Positions 1 to 13,345 of a DNA stretch of 15,256 nt are shown here, one piece after another; position 1 is the stretch's first letter; the number at the start of each line of letters is the position of its first letter. The stretch lies in UHGV virus genome UHGV-0159580; one strand, 5' to 3'. The stretch is from a virus. The notes under the pieces are model-generated. The model did not search any database. It was not told the DNA's origin and was given only the letters and a program-made list of their open reading frames with translations. The position numbers and the translations under genes were made by a program.

Positions 1-435
1 TAAGTACTCTTTGTAGTTGTACAGTCGCTTTGTTAATGTGCACTCTTTGTCAAAATCAAACCGCAAGTCAGTTGTCAACGTAAATTTGCGCACACTTGAC
101 AAACACCATGCCTTGAATGCATTCCACAGAACATCTTGCTGAAATTCTGAGCAATGCTCAAGAGCAGCCTTTGAGCCCTGCCAGAATATTGCGCAATCAT
201 CTGATTTTGCGCACTTCAGCATATCTTGCCATGCATGTATGCTGTTGATAATATGCACCTTATCATGCACAAGCTCATCAAGTGTTGCATGTTTGTTCTC
301 AGGGTCGCCAAACACGTATACAGCATCAAACATTGTCTGCACAAAACCTGCAAATGCGATGGGTTCTGTATGTTTAAGATGCTGTATGTCTGAACGTACG
401 CATGTGTCAAATTTCAAAATGAAGAGTTTGCTCAT
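1..435 (-). CDS. Hypothetical protein, partial (C-terminal part lies beyond the window's left edge); not in the ORF track
   Basis: Manual translation of the minus strand shows one frame open from ATG at 435..433 to position 1 with no stop (about 145 codons, MSKLFILKFDTCVRSDIQHLKHTEPIAFAGFVQTMFDAVYVFGDPENKH...KRLYNYKEYL). Composition is protein-like. It overlaps the dCMP deaminase 3' end by 29 nt; an internal ATG at 333..331 would give a non-overlapping start. It competes with the Cys-rich 64-aa ORF 216..410. Confidence 0.45.
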   Translation of the reverse strand, partial: MSKLFILKFDTCVRSDIQHLKHTEPIAFAGFVQTMFDAVYVFGDPENKHATLDELVHDKVHIINSIHAWQDMLKCAKSDDCAIFWQGSKAALEHCSEFQQDVLWNAFKAWCLSSVRKFTLTTDLRFDFDKECTLTKRLYNYKEYL

Positions 436-1132
436 ATGCTTTGCAATTATCTATTACATGTTGATATTGTACTTCATCTATGATGTGATTTGCAATGACA
501 CCATATGAAGTGTCATACATTGGCATCTTCTCATATGACAACGCTGCGTCAAGATTGCATATCACATAATTGCAATGCGCAATGTCATCTACATTGTCAC
601 TAACTGCTACGATATTGACGCAATTTGCAAGAAATGCATCATCAAAGTCTACTTGATTGCATGCAACTTCATAATCTGCAGCGCTTCTTGGGTACCAATA
701 TAACTCAATGCCAGCGCTACTAAGTAGTCGCAAGCCATCTATGTGATGATACAAGTCAACAAAATGCACTTGCTTAACACCTGCTTGCAAAATGAGCTTT
801 GCACAATCAATGCATGGACTGTATGTTACATACAACACGGCGTCGTTTGCAGTTGCATTGCCATATTTGCATAGCTTCATCAATGCATTTGATTCTGCAT
901 GCAAAACTTCTTTGTTGGTTTTGATACCTGCTGATGTTGCATGCTCACAACAATTTGACATACCAGTTGGCATGCCATTATAGCCATCTGAAATTATGCA
1001 GCCATCTTTTACAAGCAATGCGCCAACTTTTGCTCGCTGAGCATGTGAATTTAATGACCAGAGCTCAGCCATTTTAAGATATATGAGATTTCGTTGAAAC
1101 CACTTCGTTTCAGACCAAGTTAGCCATTTCAT
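407..1132 (-). CDS. Deoxycytidylate (dCMP) deaminase, cytidine/dCMP deaminase zinc-binding family, with a C-terminal extension of about 90 aa of unknown function
   Basis: Complete ORF with ATG start. Carries the zinc-ligand motifs of the CMP/dCMP deaminase fold: HAESNAL (H-A-E) and SPCIDCAK (PCxxC), preceded by VGALLVKDGCIISDGYNGMPTG, typical of dCMP deaminases. Confidence 0.8.
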   Translation of the reverse strand: MKWLTWSETKWFQRNLIYLKMAELWSLNSHAQRAKVGALLVKDGCIISDGYNGMPTGMSNCCEHATSAGIKTNKEVLHAESNALMKLCKYGNATANDAVLYVTYSPCIDCAKLILQAGVKQVHFVDLYHHIDGLRLLSSAGIELYWYPRSAADYEVACNQVDFDDAFLANCVNIVAVSDNVDDIAHCNYVICNLDAALSYEKMPMYDTSYGVIANHIIDEVQYQHVIDNCKAYEQTLHFEI

Positions 1133-6117: not shown

Positions 6118-7713
6118 TCAAAGCTTGAATTTTTGCACTTTTGCATCTACTGGCATCTTTTCAGCGTCATAGATTCGTTTTCGAGCAGCAAAGTGTTGCA
6201 TGTCATAATTGCAGTAGCAATAGCCTTTGCGAAGCTTGACAAGCATATCACTGTGAATTGTAAGCTTATGTGCAATATCAATAATGATTGCTTTCTGCTT
6301 AAGTGGATGCTTACGCAACAGTCGACCAATTGACTGTAATGTTACGTTGTCAGATTTGCCAATCATTAAGAACGCAGCGTAAAACCAAGCATGCACAGAT
6401 ACACCTGTAGACAAAGTACCAGTAGTTGCAATCATGATATGTCTGTCAGGCTCTGCTTCCATCATTGCAAGCATATCTTTGCGTTCATGCAAGGGTACAT
6501 CACCTCTAATGATGTGAACAACCTTGTCAACACCAGACTGCTGTATGAATGTTTGGCAAGCATCATAGATGTTCTGCACATGGTCTCGTCGTTTGCAAAG
6601 TACAAGAGCATTTTTGTCAAGCGAACAAATGATTTTTGCAATGAGCTTGTTAGCATCGACGTAGTTCATGCAATGATGTTGTTCTGCTGGAAGCAGTCTT
6701 GCAGTGTTATCAAACACTTCAGGATGCTCTTCAAGATACTGCACAAATGGCGCATCGTATTCTGCTGAATGCTCAATGACTACTCGTTTGATTTCAAAGT
6801 CAGACACGATGTTCTTTTCGAGTGCTTGAGCTACACCAAATGTACCCAATATTGGCCCAATGTACGATTCAATTGTCAAACGAGCTGCAGTATGTTCAAG
6901 CGGCAATGAACCAGACACACCAAGACGATAATGAGCCTTTGTGCAATGACTGAAGATTTCACGAATTGATGCTGCAGGTGCACCATGAGCTTCATCAGTC
7001 ACAATAAAGTCAAACTGTTCGAAAAAATCTGCTGGCATATTGACAAGACTTTGATATGTGCCGACAACCATATCTGCATCTTGCATTTTGTACTCATTGC
7101 GAACGCCTGAATGGATTTTGTAGAGCTTGTAGTTCTTGTTTGCTAAATCTGACTCATTTTGTTGATAGCTGACAACAATATCGTCAAATGCTTGTGATAC
7201 AAGATGCACCGAGGGTACAATCATAAGCGTTTTGCCATTGATTCTCTTGCTATCTTTTAAGAAGCGACTAATTACATAAACAAGAGCTGTTTTGCCATAA
7301 GACGTCGCAAGGCGCAAACAGCATTTCTTGAATTTGCAAGCAGTCAAAATGAATTTGAGCTGGTCGTCACGCATGTCAAATGGCATGTCAAGACATTCTG
7401 CCCATTGCTCAAGTTCTTCAAGCGATACAATGCGGTCAAAATTGTCAATGAGACCCTCAATCTTGACTTCATATGGAATTGGCTTACGCAATTGTAGGTC
7501 CCAAATACGCTTCCATAAGCCAAATGGCAAGTACACGCCATTAAACACATAGCAAATTTGCCCATTCCAATCTGCTTTGCGACCTTTACGCTTATTGACT
7601 GCTGCTGCAACAAAGTTTGGCACTTCTGCAGTAGCTTCAGCATACAATTGCTTGACTTCCAAATCATTTGCTTCGACAATCTGAAGCAAATCACCTATGA
7701 CTTTGAGTCTCAT
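6118..7713 (-). CDS. Superfamily 2 DNA/RNA helicase (DEAD/DEAH-box type; UvsW-like role possible)
   Basis: Helicase motifs are present in canonical order: Walker A LATSYGKTAL, motif II VTDEAH, motif III GVSGSL, motif V IATTGTLSTGVSV and motif VI QSIGRLLR. An N-terminal domain of about 130 aa is unassigned. Confidence 0.85.
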   Translation of the reverse strand: MRLKVIGDLLQIVEANDLEVKQLYAEATAEVPNFVAAAVNKRKGRKADWNGQICYVFNGVYLPFGLWKRIWDLQLRKPIPYEVKIEGLIDNFDRIVSLEELEQWAECLDMPFDMRDDQLKFILTACKFKKCCLRLATSYGKTALVYVISRFLKDSKRINGKTLMIVPSVHLVSQAFDDIVVSYQQNESDLANKNYKLYKIHSGVRNEYKMQDADMVVGTYQSLVNMPADFFEQFDFIVTDEAHGAPAASIREIFSHCTKAHYRLGVSGSLPLEHTAARLTIESYIGPILGTFGVAQALEKNIVSDFEIKRVVIEHSAEYDAPFVQYLEEHPEVFDNTARLLPAEQHHCMNYVDANKLIAKIICSLDKNALVLCKRRDHVQNIYDACQTFIQQSGVDKVVHIIRGDVPLHERKDMLAMMEAEPDRHIMIATTGTLSTGVSVHAWFYAAFLMIGKSDNVTLQSIGRLLRKHPLKQKAIIIDIAHKLTIHSDMLVKLRKGYCYCNYDMQHFAARKRIYDAEKMPVDAKVQKFKL

Positions 7714-7790: not shown

Positions 7791-8921
7791 CTACTTGAGC
7801 CCGTTGATGAATGCTTCAGTTTCAGCATCCATCGTTGCTGCTGCAGGTGCTGCTGCCGGAGCTGCTGCAGGTGCAGGCTCTGCTGCAGGCGCTGAAGCTG
7901 CTGCAAACGGGTCAATAGCTGTCTGAGCTGCTGGTGCAGTAGCAGGCGCAGCTGCCGGAGCTGCTGCAGGTGCAGGCTGAGTAGTCTGTGCCTGCTGAGT
8001 TGCTGACGGATTGATGACAATGTCAGGCCAGATGTCCGACACATCCTTGTAGTTAGCAAGGCGCATCTTAACCTGACGCTTGATGTCATCAGAAGCTTCG
8101 TGGTAGCCCCACTCCTTTTCGACATTCGGGTACTCCTTGAGCATGTCGACAATCTGCTGCATGATTTGCTGCTTGTATGCAGGGTCAGTGTCATACTTCG
8201 CCTGGTCAACAAGCGTGCCATCTGCAAGCAGCATCGACGATACGTTGGGCGAAATCGTCGAAGTCTCGTAGTCACGCATTTCAACACCATTGACGTCTTT
8301 CAGCGTAATCTTCAAGAGAATGTCGTGGCCCTTAACGGGATGGAACATGTCCATAGGCTGAGCGCCCATCTGGATGTCTTCGTCGGTCGGCTTCATTGCA
8401 GACATGCAACGCTTGTAGATGGCTGCGGGTAACCTGTATGGTAACACGCGACCAACGTTCTCAGTGTGCACTGAATCAGCCTTGATTTGCACGAGGCAAG
8501 TGTACTGACTCTGCATGCTGAACTCTCGCTTTGCAAGTGCTTCCTGCTGAGCATCCTTGGTATTGATGAGATCCCAGTAAAAATTTGATACTGGGCACCA
8601 ACCATAGGGTTTCATCAAATTTTCAGGATTTTCAGGATGCGGATTCGGCGAGCTCGGCGAATTGTAGCGGAAGCCCTGATTAGCGCCAGTCCCAAACCAG
8701 TAATAGCGGATGATTGAAATCGGCACAGCAGGGTCGTTCAAGTTCGGCAGAATTCGAATGACTGCTCGATAGATTCGGTCCTTACTTTCGGAAGGCTTAG
8801 GATTGAAGAACTCGGGTCCTGCAGAACGTTCCGGCTTAGCAAAGCTTGCTACATTGTCCGGCTGGACATCAAAGATTGACAGCGGCCGATTGCCATTCTG
8901 TCCATTTTCAATTTGTGACAT
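7791..8921 (-). CDS. Putative ssDNA-binding protein, T4 gp32-like, with a Pro/Ala-rich linker and a short C-terminal tail
   Basis: 376-aa ORF with ATG start. RAVIRILPNLNDPAVP resembles the gp32 segment I recall as QAVIRFLPSKNDEQAPF, and VGRVLPYRLPAAIYKRCMSAM resembles gp32 [20 protein letters not shown]. Both comparisons are from memory, not a search. A PAPAAAPAAAPA low-complexity linker precedes the tail ...TMDAETEAFINGLK. Confidence 0.55.
   Translation of the reverse strand: MSQIENGQNGNRPLSIFDVQPDNVASFAKPERSAGPEFFNPKPSESKDRIYRAVIRILPNLNDPAVPISIIRYYWFGTGANQGFRYNSPSSPNPHPENPENLMKPYGWCPVSNFYWDLINTKDAQQEALAKREFSMQSQYTCLVQIKADSVHTENVGRVLPYRLPAAIYKRCMSAMKPTDEDIQMGAQPMDMFHPVKGHDILLKITLKDVNGVEMRDYETSTISPNVSSMLLADGTLVDQAKYDTDPAYKQQIMQQIVDMLKEYPNVEKEWGYHEASDDIKRQVKMRLANYKDVSDIWPDIVINPSATQQAQTTQPAPAAAPAAAPATAPAAQTAIDPFAAASAPAAEPAPAAAPAAAPAAATMDAETEAFINGLK
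7800..7990. repeat. GC-rich simple-sequence region (GCTGCNGGN-type) encoding the Pro/Ala-rich linker, with a duplicated block of about 30 bp
   Basis: gctgccggagctgctgcaggtgcaggct occurs at about 7850 and again at about 7942. The surrounding sequence is a near-periodic gctgc(a/c)gg repeat. Confidence 0.7.
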
Positions 8922-9037
8922 CGCAATAAAATTTTAGAAAGTTTAACAAAAAGTTTGAAATAGACTCTTAAGAAAATCTTCAGAAGTTTATTTGTTTTGT
9001 ATATGTATATGATACAACATGCGAATATCATTTGCAC

Positions 9038-10291
9038 TTATCTTGCATGGCCACAGTCATAAACTGCAACATAACCTGCATCAATCATCTCTTGCTCATT
9101 TTGTCCGCAGTCTTCAATATGCTCTTTTGTTTTGAGATGACACCAGTGTTTGCGAATTGTCGACCTGTCATCTGACAGATGTGGCTTAAGTGCGAAGTCA
9201 GTTGAATCTACAGGTTCACCTGCAAGATGCTTTCTAATGACGTCAATGACTTCATTGTCATCCATCCATTCGAATATTGTAATGCAAGTGTAGCCATGCT
9301 TGAGAGCAAGCTGAGTTTTGTCGAAGTGATATTGCGTGCCAGTCGGCCAATTGTCTTTTGATTTGCCAACAATATAAATGTATGACAATGTTGAATTATG
9401 CGTAATTGTTGGATTGACTTCAATCAATAACTTACAACAATCATTGACATAGCTAAGGTCATATGAACGATTTTCAATGTTAACTGCATCAAAATCACAC
9501 GCAATTCCAAGTTCTTGCAATAATTTGTCATGCCACCATTTATTTGCTTTTGATATGACTTTGCCTTGTGCTGTACGACATTTAGTAGTCATACAATGCC
9601 AAGGCACACCATAACGTTGCATACATGTTTCTGATACTTTACTCATATTGCCGCATCCATTGCCGTATCGCTCACGCTTTATTGCAACGCATTTAGCAAT
9701 GTCACCAAACCCATTACCATATCGCTCACGCTTTGTCGCAATTGATTTAGCAATGTTGCCTGGTCCCGCATTGCCATATCGCTCACGCTTTGTCGCATGA
9801 ATTTTGTCAATAGGCCCAATTGCATTGCCATATTTAGCAATCTTTGCAGCAACAGTCTTTTGCATAGTTTCAGCACTGCATACACCATTATCATAGCGTT
9901 CAAGCTTTGTTGCTACTGCTTTCTGCGGATTACCTGAACGTGCGCCATAGCGTGCAATATTTGTTGCTTCACATTTTTCTTTTGGCCCAAATGTGTTGCC
10001 ATACAGTAGCTTCTTTGTGGCTTGCTGACGTTCAAGAGGTCCTTGTGCATAACCATAGCGCTCAATATTTGTTTGCTTACTTTTATCAATGACTGATTGC
10101 ACAAGTCTACAACTTTCTACACCATATTTGCGTAAGCACCCAATTTTTGTGCCATATCGATTCTTAATTTTGCCGTGTACAGTGACATTTCTGCTCAACC
10201 GAATGTTCTCAGTTGTTCTCAACAACTCATCTCGCTCTTGCTCAAGTTCTGCAATTCGTTTCTCAAGAGCTTCACCAGTTAGTGGTGTCAT
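9038..10291 (-). CDS. Repeat-containing protein: N-terminal coiled coil, about 9-10 tandem repeats of about 21 aa with an (K/E)RYG(N) core, and a C-terminal Vsr/DUF559-like PD-(D/E)xK endonuclease-like domain (homing-endonuclease-like)
   Basis: 417-aa ORF with ATG start and an ATGA overlap with the upstream gene. Repeats include IATKRERYGNAGPGNIAKS, IATKRERYGNGFGDIAKCV and AIKRERYGNGCGNM. The C-terminus LLIEVNPTITHNS...HFDKTQLALKHGYTCITIFEW follows the Vsr/DUF559 pattern (IEvDG..H...D..R...L...GW.vlRf). The domain assignment is by motif only. Confidence 0.45.
   Translation of the reverse strand: MTPLTGEALEKRIAELEQERDELLRTTENIRLSRNVTVHGKIKNRYGTKIGCLRKYGVESCRLVQSVIDKSKQTNIERYGYAQGPLERQQATKKLLYGNTFGPKEKCEATNIARYGARSGNPQKAVATKLERYDNGVCSAETMQKTVAAKIAKYGNAIGPIDKIHATKRERYGNAGPGNIAKSIATKRERYGNGFGDIAKCVAIKRERYGNGCGNMSKVSETCMQRYGVPWHCMTTKCRTAQGKVISKANKWWHDKLLQELGIACDFDAVNIENRSYDLSYVNDCCKLLIEVNPTITHNSTLSYIYIVGKSKDNWPTGTQYHFDKTQLALKHGYTCITIFEWMDDNEVIDVIRKHLAGEPVDSTDFALKPHLSDDRSTIRKHWCHLKTKEHIEDCGQNEQEMIDAGYVAVYDCGHAR
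9657..9835. repeat. Tandem direct repeats of about 57-60 bp, at least three well-conserved copies, inside CDS 9038..10291
   Basis: attgccRtatcgctcacgcttt(a/g)t(t/c)gca... recurs at about 9657, 9713 and 9771, with degenerate copies continuing toward 10180. These encode the (K/E)RYG protein repeats. Confidence 0.8.
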
Positions 10292-11028
10292 TTCACTTCA
10301 GGTTTTGCTTGCTTGGCCAACTCAGCTTCAGCATTGAACTCTTTGCCCTCAGCTTTCATTGTTTCGGCATAAGTCTTTTCATCAGTATAGCGTTCTACAT
10401 CATCGCCAAGTAATTTTGCGACTTCATCATCTGCTTCAAACAATGGCTGTGGATTGTCATCGTTGTCATCTTTGAGTTGCTCAAATGTGCTGTTATGCTT
10501 TTCTGCAATTTTGATGAGGTCGACGATTGAACGAGTTACGAGTTCACCATTGATGCCTGACTGCTGTTCAGATTGACCAGAGCCTTGTTGCAATTCTGCT
10601 TGGGTTGCTCGAACATTATTGTTGAGTGACGCAAGTACATTGGGAAGCGTTCGACAATATGATATATATTGCTGAACCAACGACATTGCGTCATTCTGTA
10701 GTTTGATGAGAAACGCAAACTCACCCATGCCTCCGCCTTGTGCATCAATGCGCTCGAACACTGAATCAAGTGCATGCATTGCATAGAACACTTGTTTGCA
10801 AAGCAAATTGATGTTTGTCTTCTCCATCTCAATTGATGCATCAATAAACGGTGACTTGACATCAGCTGCTATGCACAATTTGCGAACTTCGTCAACGTAT
10901 TTTGAACACTTGTCAAGTGTTTTGTCAAGTTTGCTTCGGTCAAACTGCTTGTAAACTTCTAACGCATCGCTTACTTCTGCAGCATCCAATATTGCATTTG
11001 CTGCAGCCAATTCTGATTCTCTGCTCAT
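10288..11028 (-). CDS. Hypothetical protein with an acidic C-terminal region
   Basis: 246-aa ORF with ATG start. The overlapping 10536..10862 ORF is in another frame and less protein-like. Confidence 0.7.
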   Translation of the reverse strand: MSRESELAAANAILDAAEVSDALEVYKQFDRSKLDKTLDKCSKYVDEVRKLCIAADVKSPFIDASIEMEKTNINLLCKQVFYAMHALDSVFERIDAQGGGMGEFAFLIKLQNDAMSLVQQYISYCRTLPNVLASLNNNVRATQAELQQGSGQSEQQSGINGELVTRSIVDLIKIAEKHNSTFEQLKDDNDDNPQPLFEADDEVAKLLGDDVERYTDEKTYAETMKAEGKEFNAEAELAKQAKPEVK

Positions 11029-11049: not shown

Positions 11050-11664
11050 CTAGCGCAATATAGTCCAAGCTTCAATAATTGCTGAAAAATCTTCAAAGGG
11101 CATTGTAGTGTAGCCGGAATCACCCCAAGATACACCCCAGCTATTCTTAATGATGAATGAGTCTTTTGTGTAGCCGACAATTGACACTGCATGCCCACCA
11201 AAATTGCCATCGCCTTTCCAAAAATGCTCAGCATCAATGTCTTTTACGAGCATGCCAACAAAGACAGGCCCATTTGCTACAACAGCAGATTTGATTTCAT
11301 CAATTGTGTAGCAACGTCTGTATGCAGTTATTGGCAATTGCTCTGAGCCCTTTGACATCTTGATTGGCTGTGCTTTGAGCAGCTTAAAGACATCACGTGG
11401 AATCATGCCCTCTTGAGGTGCATTTGAACGACGCTCATACAATGCTTTGATGTCAAGCTTGCCTTGCATAGACAGCACAGAAGACCACCAGTCAATCATT
11501 GTTGCTGCTGTGTAAGCTGCACACATTGATGTACTGCCTTGGTCTTCTACTTGAAGTTGAGCCAACTTGTACACAAGTGGCAAATCTGTTTTTGCGTCAA
11601 AACGCAAGTCTCTGTCATCTTGAGGCGACTGGATGTAGCCCAGTCCATATGTCGTTTGTTTCAT
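11050..11664 (-). CDS. Papain-family (C1) cysteine peptidase, without propeptide or signal peptide
   Basis: All three catalytic-region signatures of C1A peptidases are present with papain-like spacing: VEDQGSTSMCAAYTA (oxyanion Gln six residues before the catalytic Cys, as papain Q19/C25), GGHAVSIVGY (catalytic His; papain DHAVAAVGY) and IKNSWGVSWGDSGY (catalytic Asn; papain IKNSWGTGWGENGY). Confidence 0.85.
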   Translation of the reverse strand: MKQTTYGLGYIQSPQDDRDLRFDAKTDLPLVYKLAQLQVEDQGSTSMCAAYTAATMIDWWSSVLSMQGKLDIKALYERRSNAPQEGMIPRDVFKLLKAQPIKMSKGSEQLPITAYRRCYTIDEIKSAVVANGPVFVGMLVKDIDAEHFWKGDGNFGGHAVSIVGYTKDSFIIKNSWGVSWGDSGYTTMPFEDFSAIIEAWTILR

Positions 11665-13208: not shown

Positions 13209-13345
13209 GTTACATTGAGATGTTAAGAATTCGCTTGACTACAGAATCGATATCATTGTTTGCTACATTGCACAGTTCCATGCGAACATTAGAATCAATG
13301 AACAAGTCATGAAACGTTGACGCAGCTTGAACAACTTATTTGAGC

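Follow-up and report, generated by a model that had tools for sequence, protein, structure and literature searches.

The window analysed here, a stretch of 15,256 nucleotides (nt) of the virus genome UHGV-0159580, contains on its minus strand a gene that most probably encodes a free-standing Hef-like (Vsr-like) homing endonuclease, a promoter-less cassette of the size of one open reading frame (ORF) lying between the gene ORF246 and the gene of a gp32-like single-strand DNA-binding protein (SSB). The carrier is an uncultured phage of about 175–181 kb with T4-type replication genes. The gene is missing from a syntenic relative, is present at several loci of one related genome, and varies in length, repeat array and reading frame between close relatives. 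Its product combines a long N-terminal helix, an array of tandem repeats, a nuclease core homologous to that of Hef and a conserved C-terminal tail. The coordinates of these parts, with residues counted in amino acids (aa) and model confidence given as the predicted local distance difference test (pLDDT), are listed below.

9038..10291, minus strand: probable Hef-like homing endonuclease gene, free-standing; complete ORF, 417 aa plus stop, ATG start
9019..10302, minus strand: insertion relative to the relative L044, made up of the ORF with about 11 nt upstream and about 19 nt downstream
10214..10276, minus strand: long N-terminal helix, coiled-coil-like, aa 6–26 (predicted model, pLDDT 88–96)
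9608..10159, minus strand: array of about 10 (R/K)YG units, aa 45–228, matching Pfam DUF7487
9662–9826, minus strand: the three most alike units, aa 156–210, with 65–70% nt identity overall
9257..9559, minus strand: nuclease core, aa 245–345, of Vsr/DUF559/I-Bth0305I-type fold
9395..9460, minus strand: candidate active-site block D278, E291, N293, P294, H298 and N299, from conservation; the same residues align in Hef85
9317..9328, minus strand: H322-F-D-K325 motif at the start of a core helix, with H322 and K325 nearly invariant
9041..9256, minus strand: C-terminal tail, aa 346–417 (72 codons), ending VYDCGHAR

Insertion site of the probable endonuclease gene

In the relative L044 the order peptidase, ORF246, gp32, helicase is that of the window minus the endonuclease gene, and the encoded proteins are 65–72% identical to those of the window. 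Comparison of the two sequences by blastn aligned window positions 11640 to 10303 with L044 733–2083 and window positions 9018 to 7604 with L044 2153–3593, leaving 1,284 bp in the window versus about 70 bp at the equivalent place in L044, and tblastn of the endonuclease product against L044 found nothing. The empty site of L044 thus identifies window 9019–10302 as an ORF-sized insertion, which is the kind of difference from related phages that an earlier note on this DNA had expected of a mobile homing endonuclease gene.

The ATG of the endonuclease ORF overlaps the stop codon of the upstream 246-aa gene (ATGA), the neighbouring genes all lie on the same strand, and the ORFs on the opposite strand inside the endonuclease region are short (at most 82 aa). 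Scanning of the window with Rfam and for tRNAs gave no match, neither an intron nor another RNA family, and an intron-borne gene is thereby ruled out. The frequency of promoter-like sites around the gene was not above that in shuffled sequence, and the four terminator-like sites near it, slightly more than the shuffle mean, are all on the plus strand, antisense to the gene.

The same interval was also seen to hold other genes in more distant relatives (L037–L041), whose ORF246 homolog is 48–56% identical. Between the ORF246 homolog and gp32, L037–L040 (5864–7169) carry unknown ORFs of 232 and 193 aa, and L041 (5757–8218) carries ORFs of 239, 107, 76, 194 and 138 aa of unknown function. The ORF246/gp32 interval appears to attract inserted genes generally, as a hot spot.

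Nuclease core, candidate active site and terminal segments

The fold of the C-terminal domain is of the Vsr/DUF559 type, in agreement with the Vsr/DUF559-like PD-(D/E)xK domain assigned to it in the earlier note, and its best fold matches are DNA enzymes. The top three of these matches belong to one clade of the PD-(D/E)xK superfamily (PMC3424549), and are followed by RAP domains, Bax1, Hjc and restriction enzymes. With Vsr/DUF559 proteins (1cw0, 3hrl) the window protein has in common the fold of the core and the Asp...His geometry of the active site, although it is a multi-domain phage protein and Vsr a repair enzyme. When aligned to Vsr, the loop NPTITHNS of the window protein contains none of the cysteine residues of the Vsr zinc site.

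The protein has the Vsr/DUF559 fold yet belongs to neither family by sequence. Its C-terminal domain has no match to Pfam Vsr or DUF559 at E up to 10, phmmer against PDB sequences returned nothing meaningful, and no NCBIfam match was found for the protein. Among 28 domain sequences only P0117, a homolog in which the array lies N-terminal of a near-recognised Pfam Vsr domain, matches Pfam Vsr (E 9e-6, 25.9 bits, cut-off 27).

In two homolog alignments D278 and H298 are invariant and S247, N250, E291, N299, H322 and K325 are conserved in at least 90%, whereas P294 reaches invariance in just one of the two and at least 90% in the other; the conserved active-site residues hold in homologs down to about 30% identity. 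The putative equivalents of these residues in Vsr and in I-Bth0305I (PDB 3r3p), the EDxHD prototype, were mapped by sequence alignment and the residue equivalences of PMC3239194, and are as follows.

Vsr E25; I-Bth0305I E170; window protein, putatively N250
Vsr D51; I-Bth0305I D196; window protein, putatively D278
Vsr H64; I-Bth0305I N208; window protein, putatively N293
Vsr H69; I-Bth0305I H213; window protein, putatively H298
Vsr D97; I-Bth0305I D222; window protein, putatively H322

According to this mapping, D196, N208 and H213 of I-Bth0305I would be matched by D278, N293 and H298, whereas the places of E170 and D222 would be taken by N250 and H322.

Across alleles and paralogs, no segment is more conserved than the tail (75–94% at the aa level), which shows 92% nt identity to the paralog beside the terminase gene. 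It represents the two ends of a larger domain, between which bigger homologs hold an insert of about 125 aa. At the other end of the protein, coiled-coil Pfam matches were obtained in 16 of 33 homologs, and the N-terminal helix may act as a dimerisation element.

Homology to Hef-type homing endonucleases

The homing-endonuclease-like nature that the earlier note had suggested is upheld by profile comparisons. The window protein matches PHROG 3339, annotated 'homing endonuclease', at E 8.8e-6. When the domain profile was aligned by hhalign to Hef85 of Campylobacter phage NCTC12673, a protein whose GenBank note calls it similar to Hef of phage U5, the probability was 86.9% and E 4.1e-6 over 76 columns, and the conserved positions N, D, E, N, H, H and K lined up. 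A direct BLASTP comparison between the window protein and Hef85 was not significant, and tblastn of the ORF product against phages gave weak matches to the array only. A transitive link runs through the homolog P0040, for which the domain profile gave 1e-39 and Hef-like genes of phages gave E values up to 1e-62. In tblastn it matched 411 phage records, in as many as 15 places of a single genome, and the matches carry the annotations homing endonuclease, Hef85, Hef-like, F-LimIII or nuclease/acetyltransferase. Hef-type proteins have been placed in the Vsr-like EDxHD family (PMC3239194), and U5 Hef is reported to cleave nrdB (PMC2988022).

The family is large, with 3,916 domain relatives at E up to 1e-3 among the 1.84 billion representative proteins searched by profile, most of these relatives having 200–400 residues N-terminal of the domain. 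Foldseek searching of viral models showed that uncultured phages, phage PA5oct and giant viruses have proteins of the same architecture. Distant homologs of 500–670 aa have the nuclease core in common with the window protein, together with repeat units of about 23–24 aa of the form K..T..ERYGV; ahead of the conserved 'YDCG' tail they carry the insert of about 125 aa that the window protein lacks. Examples of this insert are P0040 aa 473–596 and P0068 aa 321–370, with further ones in P0033 and P0034; in one case it is weakly similar to Pfam Mom (GNAT-like acetyltransferases), and some phage records use the name 'nuclease/acetyltransferase'.

The repeat array

A total of 11 Y[GD] anchors was counted between aa 46 and 227, spaced by 10, 23, 18, 18, 18, 21, 18, 19, 18 and 18 residues, and the [RK]YG motif occurs nine times versus 0.24 expected, a count reached in 0 of 100,000 shuffles. 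The tandem RYG repeats reported in the earlier note are therefore real, but its estimate of about 21 aa per unit does not hold, as the anchor spacings are mostly 18 and the unit is thus mostly 18 aa, corresponding to 54 nt and to the period of 54 given by Tandem Repeats Finder (TRF). Its description of the repeats as near-identical in DNA was likewise overstated, since the three best units show only 65–70% pairwise nt identity over 54 nt (TRF: 81% matches, 2.5 copies), and 86–97% identity is confined to a 29-nt core coding for A-T/I-K-R-E-R-Y-G-N, in which the Arg codon choices are held in common. The identity of this core fits local duplication or conversion, as a modest signal.

The repeat class, which the earlier note could not name with confidence, is that of Pfam DUF7487 (PF24308), a family of unknown function. 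The window protein passes its cut-off narrowly (E 3.8e-6, 27.4 bits, cut-off 27), DUF7487 is matched by 28 of the 33 close homologs, and distant homologs match it down to E 1e-44 in several overlapping stretches. The consensus of 87 clean units from close homologs is R-Y-G-N-x-x-G-N-[VI]-x-K-x-x-x-T-K-x-x, with variable positions 5, 6, 10, 12–14, 17 and 18, and in the AlphaFold model each unit consists of a helix of about 12 residues and a loop of about 6 (pLDDT 60–77). With an isoelectric point of 9.8 and a net charge of +20, the array is probably the DNA-binding and specificity module of the protein. It is conceivable, but improbable, that it represents a modular reader of DNA in which each 18-aa helix-loop unit uses its variable positions to contact a small and constant number of base pairs.

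Assignment of the repeats to NUMOD3 (PF07460) was also tested and is unsupported. The window protein has no NUMOD3 match, and NUMOD3 is not among the 25 most often matched Pfam families (37 families in all) when the 33 homologs are scanned at E up to 10. In the distant homolog P0070 a true NUMOD3 motif adjoins the DUF7487 array, indicating that both can co-occur, and the arrays of some homologs adjoin NUMOD3 or C2H2 zinc fingers.

Allelic variation among related contigs

Identity to relatives in 300-nt bins is about 0.84–1.00 (mostly at least 0.90) across the window outside the endonuclease, and falls to 0.70 or becomes unalignable at 9301–10200 only. At the protein level the flanking products are 90–100% identical, the endonuclease product 62–70% and the array 39–59%, the array being the part that varies most between alleles, and arrays of different alleles cannot be aligned. 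Three types of allele were observed 3' of identical or near-identical ORF246, namely the window type (417 aa), type B (361–388 aa) and type C (373 aa, with a different start); codons 1–28 of the window allele are 94–95% identical in nt to type B alleles of the same locus. The length variation among relatives that the earlier note had foreseen was found, with alleles of 361, 373, 378, 379, 388, 397 and 417 aa at this one locus.

Frameshifted copies are known for type C and the window type, and four frameshifted or fragmented alleles were located, for any one of which, as a single contig, an assembly error is possible.

L034 2446–3725: frameshifted or fragmented allele (single contig, assembly error possible)
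L013 5761–6884: frameshifted or fragmented allele (single contig, assembly error possible)
L019 5004–5709: frameshifted or fragmented allele (single contig, assembly error possible)
L020 4786–5587: frameshifted or fragmented allele (single contig, assembly error possible)

The frameshift of L034 is the loss of one ATGG from the repeat ATGGATGG, at window 9266–9269. Alleles are also recombined, as in P0002, a mosaic that has the N-terminal segment of P0003 (96%) and the nuclease core of the window allele (93%). Such shuffling of array and nuclease between alleles is a likely way in which specificity gets retargeted.

The 600 bp 3' of the ORF (8422–9037), which comprise the intergenic stretch and the first roughly 500 nt of the SSB gene, are 88–98% identical among relatives, compared with 95–99% in the middle of the SSB gene and 94–99% in the gene upstream of the endonuclease. 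This diverse stretch may be a recombination or target zone.

Paralogs at other loci

In a relative of 181 kb four homologs of the endonuclease were detected, three of which could be mapped, one at the window locus, one next to the terminase gene and one upstream of a sigma-like gene. The similarity between the paralogous loci ends at the ORF boundaries, and the terminase-side locus is itself allelic. These copies at several loci of one genome, together with the several frameshifted alleles, support the selfish element proposed in the earlier note.

The terminase-side copies differ considerably. L001 (10001–11275) holds a 424-aa copy beside the terminase gene, the terminase-side paralog of L025 (3638–4981) is only about 35% identical, and L026 (1221–1802) has kept about 194 codons from the start of the L001 type and no more.

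Alternative explanations

Several observations weigh against a homing endonuclease. Every close relative (at least 94% flank protein identity) carries some allele, and the sole empty site is in a relative that is about 70% identical, so that the insertion could be old; the start overlapping the upstream stop suggests a well-integrated, co-translated gene. Furthermore, flank haplotypes do not follow allele type, a mismatch by which recombination is shown and endonuclease-driven conversion is not; co-conversion tracts, in which flank haplotypes would travel with allele type, were tested and not seen.

A domesticated, non-homing nuclease, serving marker exclusion, host DNA degradation, or recombination or gene amplification near the SSB gene, would agree with the presence of some form of the gene in all close relatives and with the maintenance of the conserved residues across many homologs. 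The overlapping start makes co-expression with the replication genes likely, and side roles of this kind are described for T4 Seg enzymes (PMC2988022; PMC13096335). Domestication is nevertheless unlikely, because frameshifted alleles in four relatives indicate that the gene is dispensable, the gene is wholly absent from the syntenic L044, and rapid allele turnover with dispersed paralogs is the classic behaviour of a selfish homing gene.

With regard to the active site, two of the five EDxHD/Vsr positions are non-acidic, N250 standing for Glu and H322 for the last Asp, as likewise in Hef85, and activity can therefore not be read from the motif. Pfam Vsr (PF03852) and DUF559 (PF04480) do not match the window protein at E up to 1, the other close homologs likewise have no Pfam Vsr or DUF559 match, and a profile hidden Markov model of the domain found none among PDB sequences. 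A catalytically dead DNA binder, acting for example near the SSB promoter with the Vsr-like domain as a scaffold, would account for Asn and His at the equivalents of Vsr E25 and D97 and for the lack of a Pfam nuclease model that directly matches the protein. This is very unlikely, however, as D278 and H298 are invariant, and E291, N299, H322 and K325 nearly so, in homologs of as little as about 30% identity, these residues recur in Hef85, and the prototype of the Hef family is reported to cleave DNA (PMC2988022; PMC3322345).

Least probable is a protein that binds or processes RNA, in the manner of eukaryotic organellar proteins combining a helical-repeat array with a RAP domain (FASTK, mitoribosomal), since the best fold matches are DNA enzymes, the sequence homology is to phage Hef-type homing endonucleases, the insertion, paralogs and pseudogenes fit a selfish element at the DNA level, and the window protein has neither the RAP sequence family nor the organellar RNA-binding role of that group. 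All three alternatives fit the genomic behaviour less well than a homing endonuclease does.

Comparison with known systems and proposed mechanism

The nuclease core of the window protein is homologous to that of Hef of phage U5 and of Hef-like proteins such as Hef85 and F-LimIII, VII, VIII and X of Dickeya phage LIMEstone1, with which the conserved C-terminal 'YDCG' tail is also held in common. Like the window gene, Hef-like genes are free-standing, are flanked by essential genes of the phage and have several copies in one genome (PMC3296691). The differences lie outside the core, where many Hef-like proteins have the insert of about 125 aa between core and tail that is missing from the window protein, Hef85 appears from its sequence to have CxxC-containing, zinc-ribbon-like N-terminal segments instead of the DUF7487 array, and the window units are compact, at 18 aa, compared with about 23–24 aa in the distant homologs.

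SegG of phage T4, a GIY-YIG enzyme encoded between gene 59 and gene 32, occupies the same niche as a free-standing, promoter-less endonuclease cassette just upstream of gp32, and cuts within gene 32 (PMC2988022). Its nuclease fold and DNA-binding module are unrelated to those of the window protein, and the likeness is one of position and lifestyle, not of homology. By this parallel the gp32-like SSB gene of the window may be considered a candidate target region of the nuclease. The T5orf172 homing endonucleases (Barth et al. 2023, PMC10448857) resemble the window gene and its alleles in their repetitive modules for binding DNA (a probable role of the window array), in copy-number change through recombination of degenerate repeats and in the exchange of DNA-binding and nuclease modules from allele to allele; T5orf172 proteins have a GIY-YIG-like nuclease and independently folded Zn fingers, whereas the window protein has single-helix units and a different nuclease.

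Taken as a homing endonuclease, the protein could work as follows. The basic DUF7487 array would lie along the DNA and pick a long target site, and two subunits may be joined through the N-terminal coiled coil, which would bring together two active sites of the Vsr type for cutting both strands. The analogy of Hef and SegG suggests that the nuclease domain (D278, E291/N293, H298, H322/K325) would cleave the genome of a co-infecting relative that lacks the allele, near the ORF246/SSB junction, and recombinational repair would then copy the endonuclease gene into the cut genome. The data fit a gene caught at different points of the cycle in which such elements invade, become fixed and decay, with recombination between alleles and paralogs reshuffling array and nuclease.

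Genomic neighbourhood

The neighbouring genes make up a phage replication and nucleotide-metabolism module, as listed below.

407–1132, minus strand: dCMP deaminase, part of the module
6118–7713, minus strand: UvsW-like helicase, part of the module
7791..8921, minus strand: gp32-like single-strand DNA-binding protein (SSB), downstream flank; PHROG 224 (phrog_224), Pfam gp32 E 3.9e-15
10288..11028, minus strand: ORF246, upstream flank, 246 aa, marking the left edge of the insertion site
11050–11664, minus strand: papain-like peptidase, part of the module

The window corresponds to the ENA contig ERZ507895 NODE_2236. No match to the whole window was obtained by megablast among 50,697 phage records, which indicates a phage without a cultured close relative, and the window helicase is at most 31% identical to any phage among the 50,697 deposited genomes. 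Scans of IMG/VR with the SSB, helicase and ORF246 proteins as queries returned the same two contigs and nothing further.

The 3' end of the SSB gene (7836–7977, minus strand) encodes an Ala/Pro-rich low-complexity tract, APAAAPAAAP..., at the C-terminal end of the protein, which is coded by degenerate tandem repeats of 6–30 nt, and the GC content reaches 0.50 in this part of the window. T4 gp32 has an acidic tail at the C-terminal position where the window SSB has this tract.

A second presence/absence difference was observed elsewhere in the window. In L011 and L018–L021 a 307-aa ORF of unknown function lies between ORFs of 96 and 98 aa (L011 1890–2813), and the window keeps only its last 41 codons, at 13213–13335 on the minus strand, with 93% identity. 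This ORF was considered as an endonuclease homolog and rejected, as it has no homology.

Significance of the contig set

By annotation alone the gene is ordinary, representing one more Hef-like homing endonuclease in a family of about 3,900 cluster representatives. More useful is the set of a dozen contigs that are nearly identical outside the gene, yet have different arrays, shuffled array and nuclease combinations and frameshifts, together with an empty site in a more distant relative. This set constitutes compact natural data for how homing endonucleases change their specificity and for what DUF7487 recognises. If the array is a true modular reader, the gain, loss and shuffling of units seen between near-identical phages would amount to direct retargeting of the nuclease, and the protein would represent a natural, TALE-like programmable recognition code on a small Vsr-type nuclease; modular reading of DNA by DUF7487 would then also be of interest to nuclease engineers.

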